Numbered from the stretch's first letter, positions 18,306-42,830 are shown. The stretch: 64,000 nucleotides of DNA from Actinomycetota bacterium (GCA_036390995.1 DASWAT010000064.1:18282-82281); one strand, 5' to 3'. A program made the numbers and translations. The notes: a model not told the origin generated them from the letters alone.

Positions 18306-18794
18306 TCACCCTCCTTCTTCGAGGATCCTTCGCAGGGTCGCCAGGGTGATCTGATCCTTGAGGCGGCCGGCGGCCTCCTTCGAACGGATCACGTCCTCGA
18401 GGGCGGCGACGGTCGTCTCCACATGCGGGAGGCGGACGCGCAGGGCACGTGCGGCCAGGTCCTTGTACCCCCGGGTTCCGGACGGTTCGAACGTGAGATC
18501 GAGATCGCCGTACTTCGTGACGAGGTTCCAGACCCGCGTGCGGGACAGTGACGCGGCGTCGTGATCGAAGGCGAGGCCATCCGGCTCACCGGCGGTCCTG
18601 ATCCGAGCGTTCAACTCGACGAGGACCCGGGACAGACGTTCGAGGTTGTCCCGGCTCTGCTCCGGCGTGATGTCGACGTCGCCGGTCCCGTGCGGTGAAC
18701 CGTGGATGATCCCCGCGAACCCGCCGATCACCACGTAGCGAACACCGTTGCGCTCCAATGCTTCCAGGATCTTCTCGGGCTCGAACTCACCCAC
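18306..18794 (-). CDS. Nucleotidyltransferase-fold protein (MNT/AbiEii/MenT-like), candidate toxin-antitoxin or defence component
   Basis: 162 aa. GG-x13-DVD (YVVIGGFAGIIHGSPHGTGDVDI) resembles the minimal nucleotidyltransferase G[GS]...DxD motif. Overlaps the upstream HTH gene by 8 nt. Confidence 0.5.
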   Translation of the reverse strand: MGEFEPEKILEALERNGVRYVVIGGFAGIIHGSPHGTGDVDITPEQSRDNLERLSRVLVELNARIRTAGEPDGLAFDHDAASLSRTRVWNLVTKYGDLDLTFEPSGTRGYKDLAARALRVRLPHVETTVAALEDVIRSKEAAGRLKDQITLATLRRILEEGG

Positions 18795-19113
18795 GCCGGG
18801 CTTCCTTCACCGCCCGCCGGCCCGCCGACGACAGTTCGAGCACCTTCTCGAACCGATCGACCCGCTCGGCCGGGGTGAGCCTGAGCAGCGCCTCGACCTG
18901 CGCCCACTCGGCTTCCTCCAGCGGGACCAAGCGGAACTGGAGATCGAAGCCACTGGCGCGAACCAGCTCCACGACTCGCTCGAGCGTGGGGGCCTCGGTC
19001 CCCGACTCGACCCGCGCGATGGCCGACTGGGTGGTCCCGGCCCTGGCCGCGAGCTCGGCCTGGCTGAGCCCCGCCCGGTGCCGCGCCTCACGAACGAACT
19101 GCGCTCCTCTCAT
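18787..19113 (-). CDS. XRE-family helix-turn-helix transcriptional regulator (putative antitoxin)
   Basis: 108 aa. Classic XRE HTH GLSQAELAARAGTTQSAIARVESG. Palindromic operator immediately upstream. Confidence 0.7.
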   Translation of the reverse strand: MRGAQFVREARHRAGLSQAELAARAGTTQSAIARVESGTEAPTLERVVELVRASGFDLQFRLVPLEEAEWAQVEALLRLTPAERVDRFEKVLELSSAGRRAVKEARRG

Positions 19114-20595: not shown

Positions 20596-21162
20596 ATGCA
20601 GGGGTTCGACCTCGACGGTCCGCTGCAGACCGAGCGGCTGCTCCTGCGTCCGTTCGTGGCCGACGACTTCGACGCGCTCCTCGCGATGCAGTCGCGGCCG
20701 GACGTCGTCAGGTACCTCTACTGGCACCCCCGGGACGAGGCCGAGGTCCGCACCGCCCTCGGGAAGAAGCTCGCGAGCGTCGGCATCCACTCGGAGGGCG
20801 ACGTCATCGCCCTCGCCGCGGTCCTCAAGGAGACGAACGAGGTGGTCGGCGATCTCATCCTCCAACTGATCAGCGCCGAGCACCAGACGGGCGAGATCGG
20901 CTTCATCGTCCACCCCGACCACCAGGGTCGCGGGTACGCCACCGAGGCGGCACGCGTGTTCCTGCGGATCGCGTTCGAGGACCTGCGGCTGCATCGTGTC
21001 ATCGGGCGGGTCGAGGCGCGGAACGCGGCCTCGGGCCGGGTTCTCGAGAAGCTGGGGATGCGGCAGGAGGCCCATCTGGTCGAGAACGAGTTCGTGAAGG
21101 GCGAATGGCAGAGCGAGCTCGTCTACGCGATCCTCGAGCGGGAGTGGCGCGGGGACCCCTGA
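20596..21162 (+). CDS. GNAT family N-acetyltransferase (RimJ/RimL-like)
   Basis: ATG 20596 after an AGGAAGGGGA RBS. Motif ERLLLRPF. Acetyl-CoA motif QGRGYATEA. Confidence 0.8.
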   Translation: MQGFDLDGPLQTERLLLRPFVADDFDALLAMQSRPDVVRYLYWHPRDEAEVRTALGKKLASVGIHSEGDVIALAAVLKETNEVVGDLILQLISAEHQTGEIGFIVHPDHQGRGYATEAARVFLRIAFEDLRLHRVIGRVEARNAASGRVLEKLGMRQEAHLVENEFVKGEWQSELVYAILEREWRGDP

Positions 21163-21223
21163 CGAAGCCGACCCCGTGCGCGGAGGGACTGGCTGGGCCA
21201 CTCGTCAGGACCTGGCCGCAGGG

Positions 21224-21955
21224 CTAGCGCCATTCGACCGAAACGACCTCCACCGGCTCGGACACGCCCCGAAGGCTGACCGTCCGAGGCTCGGACACGG
21301 GGAACCTCGAGCCCGCCGCGGTGGAACGGCTCGCGAGGATCTCGCCGCCGTCTGCCAGTGCGGCGATCCGCGCGGCCTCGTGCACCCCTCGGCCGGTGAA
21401 GTTCCGGCCCACCTGGGTGGCGCCCGTCGCATGGACGCCGATCCGCACCTGCGGGGCGAACCCCTGCGCCTGCCGTTGCTCCGCCAGGCGGCGTTCGATC
21501 GCCACGGCGCAGGCCAGGGCCTCGTCGGGCGAGTCGAAGCCCACGAAGAACCCGTCGCCGAGCGCCGAGACCTCCTCGCCCTGGTGGGCGGCGAAGATCG
21601 AGCGGAGGGTCTCGTCGTGCCAGTGCTGCAGGGCCTCCCAGGCCTCGTCGCCGAGGACCTCGATCAGGTTCGTCGACTTCACGATGTCCGTGAACATGAA
21701 CGTCTTCTCCACCCGCCGGGGCGCCGTGCTGCCCCGGAGCTGCCACGGCAGCAGCTGCTCGACCTCGTCGATCACGATGGCCTGGGTGGGACACGCCAGA
21801 GCGGCCTCGCGCAGCAGCTCTTCCTCGGCGTCCTCCGCATCGATGACGGCGGCCTTCGCGAAGTCGCCCTCGTGCCAGTCGAACGCGGTCGGCGCGATCG
21901 TGATGCAGTTGCCCGCGCCCACACAGCGCTGACGATCGAGCCGGATCCTGATCAT
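21224..21955 (-). CDS. Fusion protein: N-terminal 3Fe-4S-type ferredoxin domain + class III adenylate/guanylate cyclase catalytic domain
   Basis: ATG at 21955 (MIRIRLDRQRCVGAGNCITIAP...ALACPTQAI), with the CxxxxxC...CP pattern of actinobacterial 3Fe-4S ferredoxins. Followed by cyclase motifs FMFTDIVKST and GDGFFVGF. Start sits 2 nt downstream of the LuxR stop. Confidence 0.7.
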   Translation of the reverse strand: MIRIRLDRQRCVGAGNCITIAPTAFDWHEGDFAKAAVIDAEDAEEELLREAALACPTQAIVIDEVEQLLPWQLRGSTAPRRVEKTFMFTDIVKSTNLIEVLGDEAWEALQHWHDETLRSIFAAHQGEEVSALGDGFFVGFDSPDEALACAVAIERRLAEQRQAQGFAPQVRIGVHATGATQVGRNFTGRGVHEAARIAALADGGEILASRSTAAGSRFPVSEPRTVSLRGVSEPVEVVSVEWR

Positions 21956-21957
21956 CG

Positions 21958-24900
21958 CTACAGCACCTGCTCCCGGAATGCGAACGCGGTGGCCTCGGCG
22001 CGTGAGGACGCGCCGATCGCTGCGAACAGCTCGCCCAGGCGCCGGGTGACGTCGGGCTCTTGCACCCCCAGCGCCGTCGCGATCTCGGCGTTCGTATGTC
22101 CCTCCATGACCAGCCTCAGCAGCTCCATCTTCCCCTCGTCGATCGTCGGGGAGGGGGCCTCGCCGCCGGGTGGTGGCGGCGCGTCCCCGAGCATCCGTGA
22201 CAGTCGACCGCCGACCGGTCCGCGGAACCACCGGGCCCGGACCTCACCGTCCAGTGTCCGCTGGGCGATCAGCGCGAGGACGATCCGAAGCTGGGAGCCG
22301 ACCACCCGGCGAGCGTCCTCTCCCCCTGCGGCGAGCATCGCCTCCGCCGCCGGCGCCATGATGTCCAGGTTGAGGTCCTCGTGCATGGCCGACTCCAGCG
22401 CCCCGAACGCCGACCCCGCGGCCTCCACCGCCTGCTCGTTCGCACCGCGCGCTAGCCACACCCGGGCCAGCGCGGCGTCGGCTTGCGCCCCCCACGGGGG
22501 GTGTCCCGGAAGCAGGTGGATCAACTCCTTGGCCTTGGCCGCAGAGCTCTCGGCCAGGGCGAGCAGTCCGTCCTCTCCGCGTTCGGCTCCGAGCTTCGCG
22601 GCCTCGAGCGCCAATCTGGCCAGGATCTCGCATCGGGCGGCAGGGCTGCCCTGCTCGGTGGCGAGCTCGAGGGCTCGCTCCAGGTGCCGGCGCATCCCCT
22701 CCGGGTCGCCGGCGCCCGCATCGGTGATCCCCCGCCACACCTCGAGCAGACGAGCCCGCAGCGGGGTGGGACTCTGGACCGCGGCGGTGGACGCCCGGTC
22801 CACCCAGGTCCGCGCGCCGGCGACCTCCCCGAGGTCCAGATGAGCCAGAGCGGTCCCGCCCGCGGCCAGGAACTCCAGCGCCCGGTCGCCGATCGCCTGG
22901 GCCAGCCGATAGGCCTCCTCGCCGCGCGAGACGGCCAGGTCGGGTATGCCCTTGGCACGGGCGAACACGTGGACCCCGTAGACCATCTGCGCCTCGGCGA
23001 GCGCCCGCTCACTCTCCTTGGCCATCGACTGCATCCGCGAAGCCAGGCGCCGGATCTCCTCGATGTGCCGGGCGGCACCCGATCCCAAGTGGATGTCGGG
23101 CGCCCAGTGGAGGTACGCCATCGCGATGATCGTCGACATCGCGCCGCGCCGGTCACCGACCTCCTCGAATAACGAGAGAGCCCGCTCGAGCTTCTCCGCC
23201 GTCCGCGGGATCAGGACCTCGAGCGGGGTCCCCACGCTGATCTCGTGCAGCGTCTCGCCGGACGTGATCCGGTCGAGCATCTCGAACATCCTGCCCGCCT
23301 GGACCTGTTCCACGAACCATGCGCGGACCCGACCGAGATCGATGACCCCCAGCTCGCGGAGCGACGACGCCAGGGCCGCTCGGTCCTGTAGCGCCTCGGC
23401 CAGTTCGGCGGCACGCGCATAGGCCTCCTCGGCGGCATCGAAGTCGACCTCCCGCTCCGGCGGGGTGAAGGTCTCCCCCAGCGGAGCATGCAGGAGGTCC
23501 TGGCCCAGCTCGAGGCAGGCGGCGAGCTCCGCCTCGCGGTCCTCCTGCTGGAGAGCCAGCTCGCGCACGCGCATCGACATGGCCGCCGCCTGGTCGTCCT
23601 GCTCCGACAGGCGGAGGGCGGCGGCCCGCCGGAGCTGGACGTCCAGCTCGAGGTGGGAATCGCCGAGGGCCTCCACCAGGGCAGCGAGCTCGGCAAGCCC
23701 CTGCAATCGGTCCTGCGGGCGACGAAGCATGTCCAGGCCCTGATCCCTCGCCTGCAGGAGCGCCACCCGGTCCTGCGCCGCCGAGGCCGTCGGCAGCGCG
23801 AGCTCCACCACCCGCAGCACCTCCTCGGGAGCGTTGGCGGCAAGGGCGTTCCGGGTGGCCTCGATGGAGAACCGCACGCACACCGCGGCATCGCCCGCCG
23901 CCCGGGCATGGTGGGCCAACACGGGAAGGCTCTCCGCGGTCGGCTCGCCCGCCAGGAGGAGCTGCACGATGGCCTGGTGCACACCTCGGCGGCGGGCGGG
24001 GGTGAGCGTCCCGGCGGCGAACTCGCGCACCTGCTCGTGCGCGAAGCTGTAGTCGGCCGGGGAATCCGCACCGTGCTGCAGGAGCAGGCCGGCGGCGACG
24101 GCCGGGCGGAGGGTCTCAGCCAGGACCTCCGGCTGGGGCGCCTCCTCGTCCGTGACCCGCACCATCACCTCCCGGACGTCCTTCAGGCTGAACCGCCGGC
24201 CGAGGACGGCGGCCAGGGCAAGGGCGCTTTTCGTGGCATCGGGCAGGCGGGCGGCCCGGCGGGAGATCAGCGTCCGGACCGCCGACGGCACCAGGCGCTC
24301 GGCGTTCTTCGCGAGCGTCCACCGCCCGTCGATCTCCTGGATCATCCCGGCGTCGCGATACGCGCGAGCCAGCTCCTCCAGGATGAACGGGACGCCCTCG
24401 GCCTGGGCATGGACGGTGGCGGCGCTGGGCCCGTCGATGGCCCCTCCAAGGACCTGGCGAAGCATCTCCGCGGTCTCCACCAGGGTGAACCGCTTGAGCT
24501 TGAGCCGTCGCACCAACCCCAGGCGCTCCATGTCGGCGATCAGCGTCACCGCCTCGGTGACGAACGCGAACTCGTCGGGCCGCAGCGCCAGCACCAGCAA
24601 GATCGGGCAGGTCGCGTCCGCCCGGACGAGGTAGCGGAGCAACCGCAGGCTGTCCTCGTCGGCCCACTGCAGGTCGTCGACCGAGATGGCGAGCGGACGC
24701 TGAGCGGCAAGGCTGCCCACGGCGATCGCCGCCAGGTCGCACGCGCGCAGGAGCTTCTGGTCGGGAGGAAGGCTGGCCAACCCCGCGTCGTCCCGGCCCG
24801 AAAGGATCTCCAGGCTTCGCCGGAGATCCTCCTCGGCCGGCGTGCCCGTCGCGACCGCGACGGCCTCGGGGGCGCCGAGGATGGACCGGGCCAGCAGGAA

Positions 24901-25173
24901 AGGGCCGCGAAGCTCCTCGTCCGCGGCGACGGTGATCGAGGTGTACCCGGCAGCCTCCGCCATCTCGTTCACCGCAAGCAGCAGCCGGGTCTTGCCGATG
25001 CCCGGCTCTCCTTCCACCGTGACGGCGGCAAGACGACCGGGCAACGAGGCTTCCAGCTCTTGGCGGACGGCCGCCAGCACCGATGGACGCCCTACGAGCG
25101 CACCCGTGACACGCCGCATCTGCAGCCCGAGGGGTGAGTACGGCTGCAGAGGTGGCTCCATCGCGGAGGTCAT
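21958..25173 (-). CDS. LAL-family (large ATP-binding LuxR) transcriptional regulator: AAA/NB-ARC-like ATPase + TPR + C-terminal LuxR HTH
   Basis: Walker A GEPGIGKTRLL. Long helical-repeat region. C-terminal LuxR HTH (EIATALGVQEPDVTRRLGELF). Start chosen at ATG 25173 (alternative 25161); the ORF-track start at 25383 is likely too far upstream. Confidence 0.8.
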   Translation of the reverse strand: MTSAMEPPLQPYSPLGLQMRRVTGALVGRPSVLAAVRQELEASLPGRLAAVTVEGEPGIGKTRLLLAVNEMAEAAGYTSITVAADEELRGPFLLARSILGAPEAVAVATGTPAEEDLRRSLEILSGRDDAGLASLPPDQKLLRACDLAAIAVGSLAAQRPLAISVDDLQWADEDSLRLLRYLVRADATCPILLVLALRPDEFAFVTEAVTLIADMERLGLVRRLKLKRFTLVETAEMLRQVLGGAIDGPSAATVHAQAEGVPFILEELARAYRDAGMIQEIDGRWTLAKNAERLVPSAVRTLISRRAARLPDATKSALALAAVLGRRFSLKDVREVMVRVTDEEAPQPEVLAETLRPAVAAGLLLQHGADSPADYSFAHEQVREFAAGTLTPARRRGVHQAIVQLLLAGEPTAESLPVLAHHARAAGDAAVCVRFSIEATRNALAANAPEEVLRVVELALPTASAAQDRVALLQARDQGLDMLRRPQDRLQGLAELAALVEALGDSHLELDVQLRRAAALRLSEQDDQAAAMSMRVRELALQQEDREAELAACLELGQDLLHAPLGETFTPPEREVDFDAAEEAYARAAELAEALQDRAALASSLRELGVIDLGRVRAWFVEQVQAGRMFEMLDRITSGETLHEISVGTPLEVLIPRTAEKLERALSLFEEVGDRRGAMSTIIAMAYLHWAPDIHLGSGAARHIEEIRRLASRMQSMAKESERALAEAQMVYGVHVFARAKGIPDLAVSRGEEAYRLAQAIGDRALEFLAAGGTALAHLDLGEVAGARTWVDRASTAAVQSPTPLRARLLEVWRGITDAGAGDPEGMRRHLERALELATEQGSPAARCEILARLALEAAKLGAERGEDGLLALAESSAAKAKELIHLLPGHPPWGAQADAALARVWLARGANEQAVEAAGSAFGALESAMHEDLNLDIMAPAAEAMLAAGGEDARRVVGSQLRIVLALIAQRTLDGEVRARWFRGPVGGRLSRMLGDAPPPPGGEAPSPTIDEGKMELLRLVMEGHTNAEIATALGVQEPDVTRRLGELFAAIGASSRAEATAFAFREQVL

Positions 25174-25258
25174 TGTGTCACGCAGGTCGTTGCTTGAGCC
25201 GGGCCGCGATGCAGGCGACGATGCCGCGACGCGCTGCCCCGCGACACCTGGAGGATCC

Positions 25259-25456
25259 ATGACGGGATGGTGGGCAGCAGCGTTCGTGATCCTGTGGGTG
25301 CTCGTCTTCGTGCTCGCGGTCGTGGTGGTCGCGCTGGCGCGCCAGGTCGGCACGCTGCATCTCCGTCTCGGGCGGACGTGCATCGACCACGTCCCCGAGC
25401 GCTTGGACTACCCGCGGGTCGCCGACTTCACGGTGTGGGAGCGCCAGGAGGGCTAG
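25259..25456 (+). CDS. Candidate small single-TM membrane protein (66 aa)
   Basis: Strong GGAGGA RBS 4 nt before ATG 25259. Strong GC3 bias. Hydrophobic helix WWAAAFVILWVLVFVLAVVVVALA. 3' end overlaps the convergent cyclase gene by about 29 nt. Confidence 0.35.
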   Translation: MTGWWAAAFVILWVLVFVLAVVVVALARQVGTLHLRLGRTCIDHVPERLDYPRVADFTVWERQEG

Positions 25457-26633
25457 GCCCGAGCAGGAACCAGGTGGGCATCGTGCCCTTGCCCTTGACC
25501 TCGATCGCGCCCCGCGGCTCGAACACGAACCGGCCGTCGAGCCGGCGGACGACGCGCTCGGTCACCTGGATCCGCCCGGGCAGGCCGTGGCTCTCCATCC
25601 GGCTCGCGGTGTTCACCGTGTCGCCCCACAGGTCGTAGATGAACTTGCGGGTGCCGATCACCCCTGCCACCACCGGACCCGTGTCGATCCCGACCCGCAG
25701 CGGCAATCGATCCGTGGCCGACGCGAGCATGGCAAGCGCCATGTCGGCGACGGCCTCGAGGTGATCCGCCCGGGGCTCCGGGATCCCACCGGCGAGCATG
25801 TAGGCGTCACCGATCGTCTTGATCTTCTCCAGGCCGCGTTCGTCGGCCAGGCGATCGAACACCGTGAACACCTCGTCGAGCAGCTCCACCACCCGCTCGG
25901 GAGGAAGCGTGGCCGAGCGAGGCGTGAAGTCCACGATGTCGGCGAACAGCACGCTCGCTTCGGGGAAGCGATCGGCGATCACCTCCTCGCGCTCCTTCAG
26001 CCGGGCGGCGATCGGGCCTGGAAGCACGTTCAGGAGGAGCCGTTCCGAGCGCCGGTGCTCTCGCTCGCGCTGGCGGACGAAGTACTGGAGCAGCAGGTAC
26101 GCGGTCAGGGACACGCCGGCCACGTTGCCCACGAAGAAGGCCACCCGCACGGCGGTGGGGATGTCGGCCGGGGTGAGGCCCGGATCCACCAGCCCCGAGA
26201 TCCCGAGCAGCGCCAGGTACCCGCCGAACCACGGCCAGGCCTGCCGCGTCCCCGAGAACATCAGCGCGCCGAGCGGCGACGTGAGCGCCCACAGCGAGAC
26301 CCCGCTCGAGGCCTCGAACCCGCCGAGGCTCCATTGCAGCAGGAAGGGCAGCCCCAACATCAGGCCGAGCTGGGCAGACCGGAACGCCCGGTACCGCTTG
26401 GTACGCACGAACAGCGCCAGGGACGCCCCCGACACGACCTGGTAGGCGAAGGGGATCGAGGCCGACAGCGGCAGCCCCAACAGCAGATACGTGATCACCC
26501 ACCCGGACGCCAGCACCAGGACCAGGACGGTCGACAGCGTCAGGGTCGCCTTGCGGATCCGCTCGTCCTCGTCGTCGGTGGGCAGTACGCCCACGGAGAC
26601 GAGGCGCTGGACGAACCCCCCACCGAGCTGCAA
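25428..26633 (-). CDS. Membrane-anchored class III adenylate/guanylate cyclase (6-TM N-terminal domain)
   Basis: Six hydrophobic segments, then the cyclase core FADIVDFTPRS, KTIGDAYMLAGG and GDTVNTASRMES. Confidence 0.8.
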   Translation of the reverse strand: MQLGGGFVQRLVSVGVLPTDDEDERIRKATLTLSTVLVLVLASGWVITYLLLGLPLSASIPFAYQVVSGASLALFVRTKRYRAFRSAQLGLMLGLPFLLQWSLGGFEASSGVSLWALTSPLGALMFSGTRQAWPWFGGYLALLGISGLVDPGLTPADIPTAVRVAFFVGNVAGVSLTAYLLLQYFVRQREREHRRSERLLLNVLPGPIAARLKEREEVIADRFPEASVLFADIVDFTPRSATLPPERVVELLDEVFTVFDRLADERGLEKIKTIGDAYMLAGGIPEPRADHLEAVADMALAMLASATDRLPLRVGIDTGPVVAGVIGTRKFIYDLWGDTVNTASRMESHGLPGRIQVTERVVRRLDGRFVFEPRGAIEVKGKGTMPTWFLLGPSPPGAPTP

Positions 26634-28262: not shown

Positions 28263-28273
28263 AGCCTGGACCC

Positions 28274-29086
28274 ATGGCGACCCTCCTCACCTTGAAGCAG
28301 CCGGCCGTGGCCGCCGATCGCCTGGAGCCCGTGGCGGGCGACCTGATCCGCGACCTCGACGACTTGATCCCGCGCGCGCTCCGGGGATCCGGCTCGGCCG
28401 CCACGGCCTACGTCCGCACCTGGCGGCTCCTCGCGGCCCGCCTCCTCGAGCTCGCCCACGTCGAGCGCCCGGAGGCGGTCGCGATGTCGGAGACCGGCTT
28501 CATGCTGGCGGACGTGACGGCCTCCCCCGCTCCCCTCGCCGCCAGGCTCCTGGACCAGCTGGCGCTCCAGGCGCCGTTCTCGCCGTGGGTGGCGCGCTAC
28601 GGCCCGGGCCGAGGCATCGCGGTGTTCCTCCTGGACGAGATCCGGCGCCTGGTGCCGGACCTCGAGCCGATGTCGCACCGGGGCACCGCGCTCCCCCACT
28701 GGGACCTGTCGCCGGACGACTTCTCCCGGTTCGCGCACAACGTTTGGGTCCAGATCCAGCAGGAGACGCCTCCGCTGGCCCGGATCCAGGCGGTCCTGCG
28801 GCTGTCCGACACCGAGCTCGGCCGGCTGTTCGGCGTCCGTCGGCAGGCGGCGTCGCAGTGGCTGCAGGACGGCATCCCCCCGGCCAGGCTCCGGAAGGCG
28901 CTCGCGGTGCTCCAGGTCGTCGACCTGCTGGAGCGGAACCTGCAGCCGGATCGCATCCCCGCGGCGGCCCGGACGCCGGCCCCCGCCTACGACGGCCTCA
29001 CCATGCTCCAGATGATCGAGCGCGACCGCCACGTGGACCTGCTCGAGATCACCCGCGCCTCGTTCGACTGGACGGCGACGGCTTAG
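28274..29086 (+). CDS. Xre/MbcA/ParS-type antitoxin with C-terminal DUF2384 domain (unusually long N-terminal extension)
   Basis: C-terminal region LSDTELGRLFGVRRQAASQWL...DLLEITRASFD fits DUF2384, the antitoxin partner of RES toxins. At 270 aa it is longer than typical family members. Confidence 0.65.
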   Translation: MATLLTLKQPAVAADRLEPVAGDLIRDLDDLIPRALRGSGSAATAYVRTWRLLAARLLELAHVERPEAVAMSETGFMLADVTASPAPLAARLLDQLALQAPFSPWVARYGPGRGIAVFLLDEIRRLVPDLEPMSHRGTALPHWDLSPDDFSRFAHNVWVQIQQETPPLARIQAVLRLSDTELGRLFGVRRQAASQWLQDGIPPARLRKALAVLQVVDLLERNLQPDRIPAAARTPAPAYDGLTMLQMIERDRHVDLLEITRASFDWTATA

Positions 29087-29089
29087 GCC

Positions 29090-29620
29090 GTGGCCGTCCG
29101 GTTCCGGCACGTCCGGCGCGCCGGCACCTACCTGCGCGTGGCCGACCCGGACTGGGATGACCCGCTCGACGGCTCGTTCGCGGCCGAGCGCGGTGGCCGA
29201 TGGAACCCTCCCGGCTCGTTCGCCGTGGTCTACCTGTGCGCCACGGTCGAGGTGGCGAGAGCCAACGCGCTGCGGAAGCTCGGAGGACTGCCGTACGGCC
29301 TGCTGGACCTCCGCTCCGACCGCCGGCCCGATCTGGTGGCCGCGGAGGTTCCGGATGCACGGCCGGTCGACGTCGTGACCGACGCCGGGTGCAGGGCCGC
29401 CGGGCTCCCGGCGACCTACCCGAAGGACGGTCGCGGCCGCGAGGTTCCCTGGACCCGATGTCAGCCCGTGGGGTCGGCGGCGTGGAGCCAAGGCGAACCC
29501 GGCATCGTGTGCCGCACGGCCGCGTCGGTCGAGCGGGGCGAGGAACTCGCCTGGTTCCCCGACCACGGGGGCGCGCTCCGGTTGCTCACCCGTCGGGCCT
29601 TCGACGACTGGTTCGCGTAG
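29090..29620 (+). CDS. RES-domain toxin (MbcT/ParT-like NAD+-targeting toxin family)
   Basis: GTG 29090, 3 nt after the antitoxin stop. Conserved RES-domain blocks GGRWNPPGSFAVVYLCATVEVARANALRK, SDRRPD and ...CRTAAS. Confidence 0.7.
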   Translation: MAVRFRHVRRAGTYLRVADPDWDDPLDGSFAAERGGRWNPPGSFAVVYLCATVEVARANALRKLGGLPYGLLDLRSDRRPDLVAAEVPDARPVDVVTDAGCRAAGLPATYPKDGRGREVPWTRCQPVGSAAWSQGEPGIVCRTAASVERGEELAWFPDHGGALRLLTRRAFDDWFA

Positions 29621-38045: not shown

Positions 38046-39407
38046 ATGGGTGAGCCGACGATCGAGCGGGGGCGCGTCCACGAGCTGAAGCGCCGCGAGG
38101 ACGAGCGGTTCGCGGCGGAGCACCCGCGCTCGTTGGAGCTGCTCGCCCGAGCCCGAGCTTCGATGCCGAACGGCGTGCCGATGGCATGGTTGGCCGATCC
38201 CGGCACGTACGAGCACCCGGTGTGGGTCCTCGAGGGCAAGGGCGCGCGGTTCCGCGACGCCGACGGCCGGGAGTACGTGGATTTCAACCTCGCCGACATG
38301 AGCATGTTCTGCGGCTACGCGCCGGGACCCATCGTCGAGGCCGTGTCCCGCCGGATGGCGGGCGGGAACCAGTTCCTGCTGCCCGTCGAGGACTCCATCT
38401 GGGTCGCCGAGGAGCTGGCCCGGCGGTGGGCGCTCCCGAAGTGGCAGTTCACGCTGTCGGCCTCGCAGGCCAACACCGAGGTGATCCGTGTGGCGCGGGT
38501 CGCAACGGGCCGCTCGATCGGACTCATGTTCGAGGGCAAGTACCACGGCCACTTCGACCAAGCGCTCGTGGCACTGGAGGACGGGCACGAGGTGCCCGAG
38601 GAGCTCGGGCTGCCCGCCGGGGTCGCCGAGCAGACCCGCGTGATCGCGTTCAACGACCTCGAGGCGCTCGAGCGCGCGCTCGAGCCGCACGACGTCGCCG
38701 TGGTGCTCCTCGAACCGGCCATGACGAACAACCACGGCCTGATCCTTCCGGACCCCGGCTTCCACGAGGCGCTCCGACGGATCACGCGCGAGACCGGCAC
38801 GCTCCTCGCGTACGACGAGACCCACACGCTCGTGTGCGGGCCCGGAGGGCTGGTCCGGGAGTGGAGCCTCGAGCCCGACCTCGTGTCGCTCGGCAAGTCG
38901 ATCGCGGGCGGCGTGCCGATCGGCGCCTACGGGATGACCGACGACGTGGCCGAGGTGTTCCGCTCCGCCGACCCGCCCGAGGGCGCTCACCCCGGGGTGG
39001 CCACCGGCGGCACCCTGTTCGCGAACGCGCTGACGTTCGCGGCCGCACGCGCCGCGCTCGGGGAGGTCCTCACCGCGGATGCCTACACGCACACCGCGGC
39101 GCTCGGCGGCCGGCTGGCAGACGGGATGGAGGTGTCGGTGCGGCGGGTCGGGCTGCCCTGGACGATCCACAGGCTCTCCCCGCGGTCCGGGTACACATTC
39201 TCGAAACGGTTGCCGCGCAATGCTCGGGAGGCCATCGCCTGCGAAGACCGGCTGCTGGTGCACCTGATCCGCGTGTGGCTGGCGAACCGAGGCGTGTGGG
39301 AAGCGATCCCCGGAGCCGGGCCAACCGTATCGGTGCCCGCAGCGGAGGGCGACGTGGACGGCTACGTCGGGGCCTTCGCCGAGCTGCTGGCCGCGCTGAC
39401 GGCCTAG
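38046..39407 (+). CDS. Class-III aminotransferase (paralog of 10..1329)
   Basis: 453 aa. Divergently transcribed from the decarboxylase. Conserved blocks shared with the first gene in the window. Confidence 0.8.
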   Translation: MGEPTIERGRVHELKRREDERFAAEHPRSLELLARARASMPNGVPMAWLADPGTYEHPVWVLEGKGARFRDADGREYVDFNLADMSMFCGYAPGPIVEAVSRRMAGGNQFLLPVEDSIWVAEELARRWALPKWQFTLSASQANTEVIRVARVATGRSIGLMFEGKYHGHFDQALVALEDGHEVPEELGLPAGVAEQTRVIAFNDLEALERALEPHDVAVVLLEPAMTNNHGLILPDPGFHEALRRITRETGTLLAYDETHTLVCGPGGLVREWSLEPDLVSLGKSIAGGVPIGAYGMTDDVAEVFRSADPPEGAHPGVATGGTLFANALTFAAARAALGEVLTADAYTHTAALGGRLADGMEVSVRRVGLPWTIHRLSPRSGYTFSKRLPRNAREAIACEDRLLVHLIRVWLANRGVWEAIPGAGPTVSVPAAEGDVDGYVGAFAELLAALTA

Positions 39408-42400
39408 GAGGTTCTCGCGAGGGCGCGGCCCAGGAGCTCGTCCGCCTCGTCCACGAAGACCCGCGCCCCGAGCAAGCTCATCACGTCGCGCGCCTTCCGC
39501 AGGGCCTCGGCGGCCTCGGCCGTCCGACCGAGCCCCAGCAGGCACCGGCCCCTGCCGAGCAGCGACCGGCCTCGCTCCAGAGGGAACCCGTAGTCCGTCC
39601 AGACCCTCACCGAGCGCGCATACAGCTCCTCGGCCCGTGCGAGGTCCCCGCCATGCTCGGCCAGGATCGCCCGGCACGTGAGCAGCGACAGCTCCTGCCG
39701 GGTGGCGGTGGGCTCACCTGCGCCGTCGACGAGCTCCTCGGCGCGGCCGACCTGGCCGATCCGGATCAGCACCCGGACGGCGACCGGCAAGAACATCCGC
39801 CGGTAGTCGGGCTGGTCCTCGGTGGCCTCCAGGAACTCGTCGAGCAGCCCGGCGGAGCCCTCGAGGTCGCCCTGCCGGTACCGGAGCTCGGCGACGACCA
39901 GCAGCGACGGCGCGAGGTACTCGGCGTACTGGATGTCACGGGCCCGCGCGAGCAGTCCCTCGGCCGTCGCCGCAACGGGTTCGAGCTCGCCGCGCCGCAG
40001 GAACACCCACGACCGGTAGATGAGGGCCACCGTGCCGACCCGCGTGGCGCCGTGGGCCTGCTCCCACTCGAGCATGTCCCCGGCGATGCGCAGGACGCGA
40101 TCCCAGTCGCCGAGGTCGAAGAGCGCCTCCAGCGCGCCGCCCTCGGCCCACATCGCCATCGTGGTGAACCCCCGGACCTCACAGAACTCGGTCATGTCGG
40201 CCCACACGGCCGAGGCCGCGGACGGTCCCTCCCACGCCCACAGCGCGTAGGCGAGGTTGTTGTACGCCACCGCAGTCTCCTCGCCCAGGCCGAGCTCGAG
40301 CGCGCGGCGAAGCGCCTCCCGCAGGTCGTCCAGGCCCTCGCGATCGCCCAGCGCGCTGCGGGCCGCCCCCCGGTACTGGAGCGCCAGGACCTCCTCGTCC
40401 TCCAGCCCGAGCTCGTCCGCGAGGCCGATGGCCCGCTCGGCCCACGGGATGGCCTCCGCGCTCTCCCCGGCGACGTACAGGTGAGCGGCCATGCGGGTGC
40501 ACGCCCGCGCGAGCTCCGGGCCCGGCCCCTCGCGCTCCAGCAGCGTGATCGCCTCGCGTAGCAGCCCTCGCGCCTCCTCGCCGTGCTTCGTCGGCAGGCG
40601 GGACAGCCGGGCCATGGTCTCCCCCAGGCCGAGGTCGTCGCCCTGGAACTCGCGCATGGCCAGCGCGAAGTCCTCTTCGGCCTGGGCGAACCGCCCGAGA
40701 GCCCCCGCCACCTCCGCCGCCTCCACCAGGGCCCGGGTCCGGTCGGGGTCGCCCACCGCCAACACCTCCCGGGCCCGGCGGTAGAACGTCTCGGCCCGGG
40801 TCGCATCGAGCCGCTTCGCCCGGTCGCCGGCGAGGAGCAGTGCCGAGCCGGCGTCGCGCTCCAGCTCCGGCGTGACCTGCCCCGTGGCTCGGGCCAGCTC
40901 CAGGGCCTCGCCGTAATGGTGGGCCAGGAGCTCCGACAGATCCGAGACCCGATCTCCCGCCACGCTTCGGATCCAGGAGGCCACCGCCAGGTGCTTGACC
41001 CCGCGCGCGGCGCGTGGGATCTGTCCGTACGCCACGTCTTGCACGAGGACGTGCCAGAACGCGTACTCGGCCTCCCCCTTCACGGTGGAGATCCGGGAGG
41101 GTCGAACGAACTCGCGACGGACGAGCTCGTGGAGGATGACCTCCGCCTCGTCGCGACCGATCCCGGCCATCGACGCCACGGCGCCAGCCCAGAAGACCTT
41201 GCCGGCGACGGCGGCATCCTGCAGCACCACCTTGTGGTCGAGCGGCAGCGTGTCGAGGCGCGCCCCGATCAGCAGCTGGAGGGTCTGCGGGACGGCGACC
41301 TCTGCGGCCGCGCCCGACACCCCTCGAGCCACGTCCACGATCCCCTGGTCCCGCAGCATCCGGACGAACTCCTCGGCGTACAGGGGGTTACCGCCCGAGC
41401 GCTCCAGCAGCGTGGCCTGGGTCTGCGCCGGCAGCACGGCGCTGTCGAGGAGCGCGGACACGAGCATCGCGGTCTCCTGGGAGGAGAACGGCGCCAGCGC
41501 GATCGAGGTGGCGTTGCGGCGTCCTCCCCCCCAGTTCGGATGGCGCTGGTAAAGCTCCGGACGGGCCGCGCAGACCACCAGGAGCGGCAGCCCCACGATC
41601 CAGTCCACAACGTGCTCGATGAACGCGAGCATCGGCTCGTCGGCCCAGTGGAGGTCCTCGAACACCAGGATCGTGGGCGAGCTCGCGGCCAGCGCCTCCA
41701 CCCATCGTCGCCAGGCGGTGAACAGCTCCTCCCTCGGCACGTCGGCCGCGGAGCGCGGCAACCCTGCGAGGGGCGCGAGCCGAGCCTGCATCCAGTCCCG
41801 CTCGCCAGGATCGGCCACGAACGGCTCGACGGCGCCCCGAAGCTTCGGCTCGACGTCGGCCGGCGGGTCGGACTCGAGGATCCCGGCCTCCGCTTTCACG
41901 ATCTCGGCGAGCGCCCAGAAGCTGATCCCCTCGCCGTACGGCAGGCACCGGCCCTGGCGCCACCGGATGAGATCGGGGAACTCGTCGACGAACGAGCCGA
42001 GCTCCTGGATCAGGCGCGTCTTGCCCACGCCGGGCTCGCCCGTGATCGTGACCAGCTGAACGGATGATTCCGAGACCGCCCGGCGGAACGCACCCTCCAG
42101 CAGCGTGCGTTCCTCCCGACGACCGATGAACGGCGTCTGCGGCTGCGGACGCGCATCCACGCCGAACCGGCTCCGAGCCTCGACGGCCCGCCACACCTCG
42201 AGGGGCTCCGCCTTGCCCTTCACCACGACGGGATCGCGATCCTCGTAGCTGAAGGCGCGGTCGGTCGCCCGGTGCGTGGGCTCGCCTACCACGATCTCGC
42301 CCTCGGCGGCGATCTGCAGGAGCCGCGAGGCCGTATTCACCACGTCGCCGGTCACGGCTTCGCCGATCTGCGGACCGGAGCCGGGCCGAGCCACGACCGC

Positions 42401-42814
42401 CTCCCCCGTGTTCACGCCGACCCGCACGGCGGCCGGCAGGTGCGGGTTGCGCTCGGCGAGCCCGGGCATCGCCTCCACCACGTTCAGGGCCGCGCGGACG
42501 GCACGCTCCGGATCGTCCTCGTGTGCTACCGGAGCGCCGAACACGCCGAGCACCGTGGGGCCCATGAACTTGTCGATGGTGCCGCCGAAGTTCGTGACCT
42601 GCTGCCGGACCAGGCCGTGGTAGGGGGCGAGGGCCTGTTGCAGGTCCTCGGGATCGCCGCCCTCGCCGACGCCGAGCAGCTCACAGAACACCACGGTGAC
42701 GATCTTGCGCTCCTCGCCGCCGGGACCCGCCGGTGGCGCGAGCGCCGAGCCGCACCGGCCGCAGAACCGCGCCCGGTCGGGGTTCTCCTCGCCGCAGTGC
42801 CCGCAGACCAGCAC
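39404..42814 (-). CDS. Multidomain signalling protein: zinc-ribbon + class III adenylate cyclase + AAA/NB-ARC-like ATPase + TPR repeats
   Basis: N-terminal CGHCGEENPDRARFCGRCG. Cyclase-like region. Walker A GEPGVGKTRL. Long C-terminal helical repeats. Confidence 0.8.
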   Translation of the reverse strand: MLVCGHCGEENPDRARFCGRCGSALAPPAGPGGEERKIVTVVFCELLGVGEGGDPEDLQQALAPYHGLVRQQVTNFGGTIDKFMGPTVLGVFGAPVAHEDDPERAVRAALNVVEAMPGLAERNPHLPAAVRVGVNTGEAVVARPGSGPQIGEAVTGDVVNTASRLLQIAAEGEIVVGEPTHRATDRAFSYEDRDPVVVKGKAEPLEVWRAVEARSRFGVDARPQPQTPFIGRREERTLLEGAFRRAVSESSVQLVTITGEPGVGKTRLIQELGSFVDEFPDLIRWRQGRCLPYGEGISFWALAEIVKAEAGILESDPPADVEPKLRGAVEPFVADPGERDWMQARLAPLAGLPRSAADVPREELFTAWRRWVEALAASSPTILVFEDLHWADEPMLAFIEHVVDWIVGLPLLVVCAARPELYQRHPNWGGGRRNATSIALAPFSSQETAMLVSALLDSAVLPAQTQATLLERSGGNPLYAEEFVRMLRDQGIVDVARGVSGAAAEVAVPQTLQLLIGARLDTLPLDHKVVLQDAAVAGKVFWAGAVASMAGIGRDEAEVILHELVRREFVRPSRISTVKGEAEYAFWHVLVQDVAYGQIPRAARGVKHLAVASWIRSVAGDRVSDLSELLAHHYGEALELARATGQVTPELERDAGSALLLAGDRAKRLDATRAETFYRRAREVLAVGDPDRTRALVEAAEVAGALGRFAQAEEDFALAMREFQGDDLGLGETMARLSRLPTKHGEEARGLLREAITLLEREGPGPELARACTRMAAHLYVAGESAEAIPWAERAIGLADELGLEDEEVLALQYRGAARSALGDREGLDDLREALRRALELGLGEETAVAYNNLAYALWAWEGPSAASAVWADMTEFCEVRGFTTMAMWAEGGALEALFDLGDWDRVLRIAGDMLEWEQAHGATRVGTVALIYRSWVFLRRGELEPVAATAEGLLARARDIQYAEYLAPSLLVVAELRYRQGDLEGSAGLLDEFLEATEDQPDYRRMFLPVAVRVLIRIGQVGRAEELVDGAGEPTATRQELSLLTCRAILAEHGGDLARAEELYARSVRVWTDYGFPLERGRSLLGRGRCLLGLGRTAEAAEALRKARDVMSLLGARVFVDEADELLGRALARTS

Positions 42815-42830
42815 GCGGCAAGTCTACGGG

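Follow-up and report, generated by a model that had tools for sequence, protein, structure and literature searches.

The DNA analysed here is a 64,000-nt window from the genome of an Actinomycetota bacterium (GCA_036390995.1, DASWAT010000064.1:18282-82281), and all coordinates are given in window numbering. Two adjacent genes on its minus strand are the subject of this analysis: one encodes a LAL-type transcriptional regulator, the other a fusion protein in which a ferredoxin domain precedes a class III cyclase domain. The gene pair is laid out as follows (aa, amino acids; ORF, open reading frame):

21958..25173, minus strand: LAL-type regulator gene, 1071 aa plus TAG stop, with ATG at 25173 and TAG at 21960-21958 (ORF listing and direct reading)
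21953..21960, minus strand: gene junction TAG-CG-ATG, consisting of the regulator stop, a 2-nt spacer (21957-21956) and the start of the fusion gene
21224..21955, minus strand: ferredoxin::class III cyclase fusion gene, 243 aa plus TAG stop, with ATG at 21955-21953 and TAG at 21226-21224

An earlier description made from the sequence alone (hereafter the sequence-only reading) had placed the fusion gene 2 nt after the regulator stop, and both ORF listing and direct reading return exactly this spacer. Inside the regulator gene, 8 nt ahead of the fusion-gene ATG, stands a Shine-Dalgarno-like AGGTG. On direct reading the fusion gene is one uninterrupted ORF, and the G+C content at third codon positions (GC3) in its reading frame is 0.89-1.00 over the ferredoxin, linker and cyclase segments. 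The claim that a complete class III cyclase domain is fused to an N-terminal ferredoxin was borne out by Pfam, which finds Fer4_13, Fer4_15 and Guanylate_cyc in a single 243-aa ORF. The start of the regulator is backed by tblastn, as ortholog alignments open at residues 2-13 of the protein that begins with the ATG at 25173. Scanning 20900-25700 for promoters and terminators, and the flanks for inverted repeats, yielded nothing useful, and an Rfam scan of the whole window returned no match. In the databases, the fusion protein is recorded at NCBI as HEX9122658.1, 'MAG TPA: ferredoxin [Actinomycetota bacterium]', and its relatives are named 'ferredoxin' in NCBI and 'class 3 adenylate cyclase' in JGI. 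Each annotator thus sees one half of the protein, which exposes an annotation gap, neither name reflecting the fusion.

Relatives of the fusion protein are numerous: among 5.8 billion proteins searched, more than 2,500 were found. The best 120, nearly all with a length of ~243 aa, are 75-95% identical, and all carry precomputed ferredoxin matches, accompanied by a cyclase match in all but one. A genome scan, with one genome per species, returned 43 loci, of which 29 hold the full fusion. Nearly all carriers are soil metagenome-assembled genomes (MAGs) of Actinomycetota, including Solirubrobacterales and Gaiellaceae; the others comprise several Chloroflexota, one member of the Dormibacterota and a bin labelled as Steroidobacteraceae, possibly through mis-binning. 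The fusion protein is more conserved (67-94% identity) than the regulator (52-62%). Its gene starts with ATG or GTG at the same position, giving an N-terminus of the form MxRxRVDRHRC, in most of 28 loci compared. The start proposed at the outset is therefore retained, and a start further downstream, set beforehand as the outcome that would speak against it, found no support. Together, these alignments indicate that the fusion is a real protein under selection and not a gene-model artefact.

Immediately upstream of the fusion gene, an ortholog of the regulator (52-62% identical) is present in 29 of the 29 other loci, and an all-against-all comparison of flanking ORFs in these 29 loci revealed no other conserved neighbours. 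The gap between regulator stop and fusion start was compared in 28 loci, namely the window and 27 of the 29 others; 13 of them share a 2-nt gap, another 6 have between -1 and 3 nt, 8 are spaced at 10-19 nt, and the last at 43 nt. By this genomic evidence, regulator and fusion gene are an obligate pair with conserved close spacing, which is the strongest new result of this analysis. The link to a STAND/LuxR regulator has thereby become stronger than first claimed: gene order is kept throughout, spacing is conserved, and single chains uniting AAA_16, LuxR and cyclase domains exist within the same cyclase clade, as described below.

A further cyclase gene, on the same strand, lies 254 nt upstream of the regulator. 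The product of this gene (25428-26633, minus strand) is a canonical class III adenylate cyclase anchored in the membrane; it contains the motifs KTIGDAY and GDTVNTASRME and matches Pfam at 7.9e-57. As a possible third component of the module the gene was rejected, since it is not a conserved neighbour elsewhere.

The first 84 residues of the fusion protein comprise the following features:

21761..21955, minus strand: single-cluster ferredoxin domain, aa 1-65 (Pfam Fer4_13 and Fer4_15)
21905-21925, minus strand: CVGAGNC motif, aa 11-17
21788-21793, minus strand: CP of the ferredoxin motif (ACP, aa 54-56)
21704..21760, minus strand: basic linker, aa 66-84, with the motif LLPWQLRG at 21731-21754

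In the 243-aa protein, Pfam matches Fer4_13 at aa 7-60 (E 4.7e-10) and Fer4_15 (E 6.1e-9). The ferredoxin domain, 65 aa long and acidic (isoelectric point, pI, 4.35), contains exactly three Cys. It aligns end to end, ligands in register, with Desulfovibrio africanus FdI, Thermotoga maritima Fd, Pyrococcus furiosus Fd and Mycobacterium tuberculosis FdxE, and its matches in the PDB are 1dax (2e-6), 1rof (4e-6), 2z8q (1e-5) and 8amq (3e-5). At the position held by Cys or Asp in [4Fe-4S] ferredoxins, the fusion protein has Ala. The pattern CxxA/GxxC(x)nCP is a recognised [3Fe-4S] motif (Child et al. 2018, PMC6237146). Residues C11, A14, C17, C55 and P56 are invariant in an alignment of 135 fusion proteins that are ~67-95% identical, and the Fe-S ligands are, by this measure, under selection. 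The claim of a 3Fe-4S-type motif consequently stands, as the three Cys together with A14 and P56 show none of the loss of ligands among homologs that would have counted against it. With every element of the motif present, the N-terminal domain is, on sequence grounds, a [3Fe-4S]-type single-cluster ferredoxin, predicted to bind its cluster.

The linker that follows is also constrained, with L69, P70, W71, Q72, R74 and G75 invariant in a 43-sequence alignment. The LLPWQLRG motif does not occur in paralogs lacking the ferredoxin, and the linker is thus specific to the ferredoxin fusion.

Actinobacterial [3Fe-4S] ferredoxins, such as M. tuberculosis Fdx and FdxE and M. marinum Fdx1-11, are free-standing or fused to cytochrome P450 (P450) and stand beside P450 (CYP) genes, whereas the fusion partner of the domain described here is a cyclase. 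Genes for P450 or ferredoxin reductase are absent both from the window neighbours and from the neighbours conserved across the 29 other loci, and for this reason the ferredoxin domain is not considered a P450 redox partner.

The remainder of the fusion protein is the cyclase half:

21227..21703, minus strand: class III cyclase homology domain (CHD), aa 85-243 (Pfam Guanylate_cyc)
21686-21688, minus strand: metal-binding Asp, D90
21566-21568, minus strand: S130, at the adenine-specifying Lys site
21554-21556, minus strand: metal-binding Asp, D134
21401-21403, minus strand: N185, at the adenine-specifying Asp site
21380-21382, minus strand: H192, at the catalytic Asn site
21368-21370, minus strand: transition-state Arg, R196

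The Guanylate_cyc match covers aa 85-228 and model positions 10-170 of 183, with an E value of 3.9e-7 and 30.3 bits against a cutoff of 21.9. NCBIfam holds no specific model for the fusion family, its best match being the cyclase part of LipJ, far below cutoff. The closest solved relatives, determined using phmmer against the PDB, are Ma1120 (1e-22) and Rv1900c/LipJ (1e-17), and the domain presumably belongs to class IIIc in Linder and Schultz's scheme. An AlphaFold 2 (AF2) model of the cyclase domain reaches a predicted local distance difference test (pLDDT) score of ~80-95, and Foldseek superposes it on Ma1120 (4wp8) with a TM score of 0.91 and a root mean square deviation of 1.6 Å.

Residues D90, D134, H192 and R196 are invariant in the 135 aligned sequences, and the phosphate loop FTDIxxST is present and conserved. 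The specificity sites behave differently: the Lys site, S130 here, is occupied in the family by V (101 sequences), S (12), A (12) or T (8), and the Asp site, N185 here, is Asn in 131 of 135. Among 91 cluster representatives of the wider clade, each metal-binding Asp and the Arg are retained in 89 and the His in 80. As far as these alignments tell, the catalytic metal and Arg residues are under selection. H192 aligns with a His of Rv1900c (1ybt sequence), and the same position is Ala in Ma1120. Rv1900c is reportedly active, with both N342 and H402 dispensable for activity, and Rv0386, which has Gln/Asn at the specificity sites, is said to be an active cyclase with a guanylate side activity. Ma1120, with Ala at the Asn site, is active, and introducing Asn abolishes its activity (PMC4215837). 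Judging by these residues, the cyclase domain probably retains catalysis. Because the Lys/Asp pair is absent and the catalytic Asn is replaced by His, its nucleotide product is uncertain; it may be cyclic AMP (cAMP), made with relaxed specificity as in Rv0386 and Rv1900c.

The regulator has a recognisable ATPase domain near its N-terminus and a putative HTH near its C-terminus:

24595..25098, minus strand: AAA_16 ATPase domain, aa 26-193 (Pfam E 1.9e-16)
24988-25011, minus strand: Walker A motif GEPGIGKT, read from the sequence
24658-24690, minus strand: Walker B-like motif AISVDDLQWAD, read from the sequence
21979..22128, minus strand: LuxR/GerE helix-turn-helix (HTH), aa 1016-1065 (Pfam GerE just below cutoff)

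The sequence pattern of the HTH is typical, and its Pfam match to GerE reaches 22.2-23.4 bits (cutoff 23.5; E values from 5e-5 to 1e-4). The sequence-only reading had described an ATPase-TPR-LuxR protein of roughly 1070 aa. The length (1071 aa) and the AAA_16 domain are as described, the LuxR match falls just under cutoff, and the TPR portion could not be upheld, since Pfam detects no TPR repeats in the regulator (best TPR_12 E = 1; no TPR_MalT match). The middle of the protein (~800 aa, aa ~194-1015) may be called helical and TPR-like by analogy and composition only. No relatives of the regulator were found in the PDB by sequence. Like the STAND activators of the MalT/LAL type, the regulator begins with an AAA_16 domain bearing both Walker motifs, continues with a long helical stretch and closes with a putative LuxR HTH; unlike them, it lacks Pfam-detectable TPR/SUPR repeats, and its gene forms an obligate pair with that of a cyclase.

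The clade to which the cyclase domain belongs was surveyed in 1.84 billion cluster representatives. The full ferredoxin-cyclase fusion forms few clusters at 50% identity, and many proteins have, as their C-terminal part, a cyclase domain with 50-66% identity. Architectures include TPR-cyclase (~650 aa), AAA_16-TPR-cyclase and Ser/Thr kinase-STAND-cyclase, as well as SARP-cyclase, in which the SARP part consists of a winged helix-turn-helix (wHTH) and a BTAD domain, and SARP-AAA_16-cyclase with a long helical middle. Two proteins, P0130 (1158 aa) and P0209 (1098 aa), unite AAA_16, GerE(LuxR) and cyclase in one chain, their cyclase domains being 61% and 57% identical to that of the window. Such AAA_16-GerE-cyclase chains are collinear with the window gene pair, minus the ferredoxin. 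Another member of the clade, the 409-aa metagenome representative P0150 (57% identity), has a protoglobin, a haem sensor, in the position of the ferredoxin, which by analogy supports reading the ferredoxin as an input domain.

Shorter fusions were also encountered: in P0127, P0139, P0158 and P0192 an OmpR-type wHTH plus BTAD (SARP), or a GerE domain, is followed by the cyclase with no ATPase between, and some of these may be fragments. A concatenated query for a single chain containing regulator, ferredoxin and cyclase gave P0290 as sole match, on a frameshift-riddled contig, and this seemingly single-chain GerE-ferredoxin-cyclase protein is probably an assembly artefact. Frameshifted stretches also occur in the 50%-cluster representatives P0123, P0125, P0151 and P0239; these were likewise treated as assembly artefacts and not as evidence. 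On the same contig as P0290 (locus L044, 1967-3736), the module lies near a LipJ-like alpha/beta-hydrolase-cyclase gene and a gene for a small cNMP_binding protein.

Comparison with known systems places the fusion protein beside, and apart from, several cyclases. It shares with Ma1120 of M. avium (4wp3/4wp8) and Rv1900c/LipJ of M. tuberculosis (1ybt/1ybu) the same compact CHD with its metal-binding Asp pair and Arg. However, Ma1120 keeps the Lys/Asp pair (K101/D157), and the N-terminal domain of Rv1900c is an alpha/beta-hydrolase instead of a ferredoxin. By their descriptions, their loci not having been inspected, neither protein is paired with a LuxR-type STAND regulator. The combination of class III cyclase, AAA-type STAND ATPase and LuxR HTH is known from Rv0386, Rv1358 and Rv2488c; Rv0386, an active cyclase (PMC3466318), resembles the window cyclase in lacking the canonical Lys/Asp pair. 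In contrast to these three proteins, in which one polypeptide without ferredoxin begins with the cyclase, the window encodes the cyclase in a separate downstream gene together with an Fe-S domain, and the covalent relatives in its clade carry the cyclase C-terminally, after the HTH. Within the Actinobacteria, CHD+AAA+LuxR proteins, with N-terminal cyclase, had been believed to occur in Mycobacterium only (Santos et al. 2012, PMC3466318).

A literature search, incomplete in coverage, found no characterised ferredoxin-cyclase or Fe-S-regulated cyclase. The sequence-only reading, whose author knew of no characterised fusion of this kind, holds to that extent and needs amending in another respect, because a different, membrane-bound ferredoxin-cyclase architecture has already been noted. 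Ferredoxin-linked class IIIb membrane cyclases, such as Rhodopseudomonas palustris Q132R4, were identified bioinformatically, with 30 sequences from alpha- and beta-proteobacteria (Beltz et al. 2016, PMC4821796). As in the window protein, the ferredoxin directly precedes the class III catalytic domain, and the architecture is uncharacterised there too. Unlike these proteins, which have a cytochrome-b-like haem anchor of six transmembrane segments, the window protein is soluble, has no transmembrane segment and begins with the ferredoxin; furthermore, it is of the Ma1120/Rv1900c type, its carriers are Actinomycetota and Chloroflexota, and its partner is a LAL regulator.

Taking these results together, we propose that the two genes form a self-contained signalling module consisting of a STAND/LuxR regulator and a translationally coupled, ferredoxin-gated class III cyclase, a proposal to which we give about an even chance. 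The regulator would be an ATPase of the STAND type (LAL/MalT-like) that binds DNA through a LuxR end. The fusion protein, its translation coupled to that of the regulator, would be a soluble Ma1120/Rv1900c-type cyclase that uses its N-terminal ferredoxin as a regulatory domain. All class III cyclases work as dimers, and this one would presumably act as a homodimer. The state of the cluster, meaning its oxidation state or its retention or loss (holo or apo) under O2, NO or iron stress, would be relayed through the LLPWQLRG linker to the geometry of the dimer, which in turn would set the output of cyclic nucleotide monophosphate (cNMP). Cyclase and regulator would then act as one unit, either by forming a complex or via the nucleotide, and redox or Fe-S status would be converted into a transcriptional response. 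Redox sensing, cluster binding and cAMP synthesis by the fusion protein are all predictions here. A bolder version, put forward tentatively and somewhat less likely than not, is that this is the first iron-sulfur-gated cyclase, switched by redox, O2, NO or iron in complex with a STAND/LuxR factor, and that it represents a widespread, hitherto unrecognised redox-to-cNMP-to-transcription module of soil Actinomycetota and Chloroflexota. The product of such a module might be a nucleotide other than cAMP, given the non-canonical specificity residues.

Several observations weigh against this proposal. The Pfam score of the cyclase domain is modest (30 bits), and the adenylate-defining Lys/Asp pair is missing (S130, N185), both positions varying freely across the clade. 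No cNMP-binding domain is detectable in the regulator by Pfam. Neither was a conserved operator found upstream of the regulator in a search of 22 loci for 9- and 10-mers with one mismatch allowed, nothing rising above shuffled controls. The AF2 pLDDT is only 40-55 in the ferredoxin part and linker and hence provides no model of inter-domain coupling; owing to these values, the inter-domain geometry of the AF2 model, itself a monomer, was given no weight. Finally, P0130 and P0209 are not orthologs of the window regulator (28% identity in the ATPase), and the argument from fused relatives is therefore at the level of architecture only.

The main rival to the enzyme module holds that the ferredoxin-CHD protein serves the regulator as a protein ligand and is not chiefly an enzyme, binding the STAND ATPase or the LuxR end and switching it by cluster state without a diffusible messenger. 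MalT, which is controlled by MalK, MalY and Aes as protein ligands, serves as its model. The replacement of the canonical Lys, Asp and Asn alike, the lack of a detectable cNMP-binding domain in the regulator and the repeated fusion of the same CHD clade to GerE, SARP wHTH-BTAD and AAA_16-TPR are in line with this idea, and translational coupling suggests matched amounts of both proteins. We nevertheless regard it as rather unlikely, since the metal-binding Asp pair, the FTDIxxST phosphate loop and the Arg are invariant in the fusion family, which would be unexpected in a mere scaffold, though compatible with it. Moreover, the missing Asn need not signify an inactive enzyme: Rv1900c, with His at this site, is reportedly active without it, and Ma1120, with Ala, is active without it as well (PMC4215837). 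A different role for the ferredoxin, as electron carrier or as structural or dimerisation module, with the cyclase controlled solely through the regulator, appears quite improbable. The acidic domain (pI 4.35) does have the size typical of electron-transfer ferredoxins and aligns over its full length with bona fide carriers; yet the conserved neighbours include no P450, reductase or other redox partner, it is joined covalently to a signalling output by an invariant linker, as sensor domains typically are, and a protoglobin haem sensor takes the same position in P0150.

Two further explanations can be effectively excluded. According to one, so improbable as to be barely worth entertaining, the fusion is an annotation artefact, representing two separate genes or a protein whose true start lies downstream and leaves out the ferredoxin. 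In-frame GTG codons between the domains would allow for this, and NCBI and JGI each name one half; against it stand the single ORF, the ~243-aa length shared by almost all of the 120 best homologs, the conserved start, the GC3 of 0.89-1.00 and the invariant linker. The other, very improbable in our view, is an anti-phage system composed of a Pycsar-like cyclase and an Avs-like STAND NTPase, to which weak PycC matches (E 3e-4 and 6e-4) and the frequency of STAND NTPases in defence might point. The PycC matches, however, reflect generic CHD similarity, the regulator has no PADLOC match and a putative LuxR HTH as its output domain, a gene for a cNMP-activated effector is absent, and the 67-94% identity across phyla comes without the usual defence-island context.

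Independently of how it operates, the module is a genuine variant of class III cyclase signalling, well conserved yet unstudied, which brings in a new putative sensor domain and has a fixed partner in the LAL regulator. As a category it is not new, because domain shuffling is common among CHD proteins, the ferredoxin-cyclase idea has been published and function is deduced. Control by haem, flavin, light, pH, bicarbonate and lipids is known for class III cyclases. Being small (243 aa), soluble, abundant in soil metagenomes and highly conserved, the fusion protein is a tractable model for studying how Fe-S state might gate a cyclase dimer. Pairing with a LAL regulator and the covalent LAL-, SARP- and TPR-cyclase fusions suggest that cyclase and transcription factor function as one unit, which bears on what the cyclase domain does in mycobacterial STAND/LuxR proteins of the Rv0386 type. 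Should both Fe-S gating and complex formation with the regulator prove true, they would constitute a notable addition to both fields.

Other parts of the window contain features of separate interest. A third class III cyclase gene (39404-42823, minus strand) encodes a protein with zinc-ribbon, Guanylate_cyc, AAA_16 and MalT-like TPR domains that is Rv0386-like but without a LuxR HTH; cyclase-AAA_16 giants similar to this protein are found near the module in 7 related loci. At 28265-29620 on the plus strand, an ORF encoding a RES domain (29087-29620, Pfam 1.8e-10) directly follows an ORF without Pfam match (28265-29086), and the two may be a RES-type toxin-antitoxin pair. A gene for a Tag methyladenine glycosylase comes after the RES-domain ORF, and GC content falls from ~0.72 to 0.635-0.65 at 30-32 kb. 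On the minus strand at 18306-19113, an XRE-type HTH gene (18787-19113) overlaps the start of a weakly matching DUF6036 nucleotidyltransferase-like ORF (18306-18806), an arrangement resembling a small toxin-antitoxin or regulator pair.

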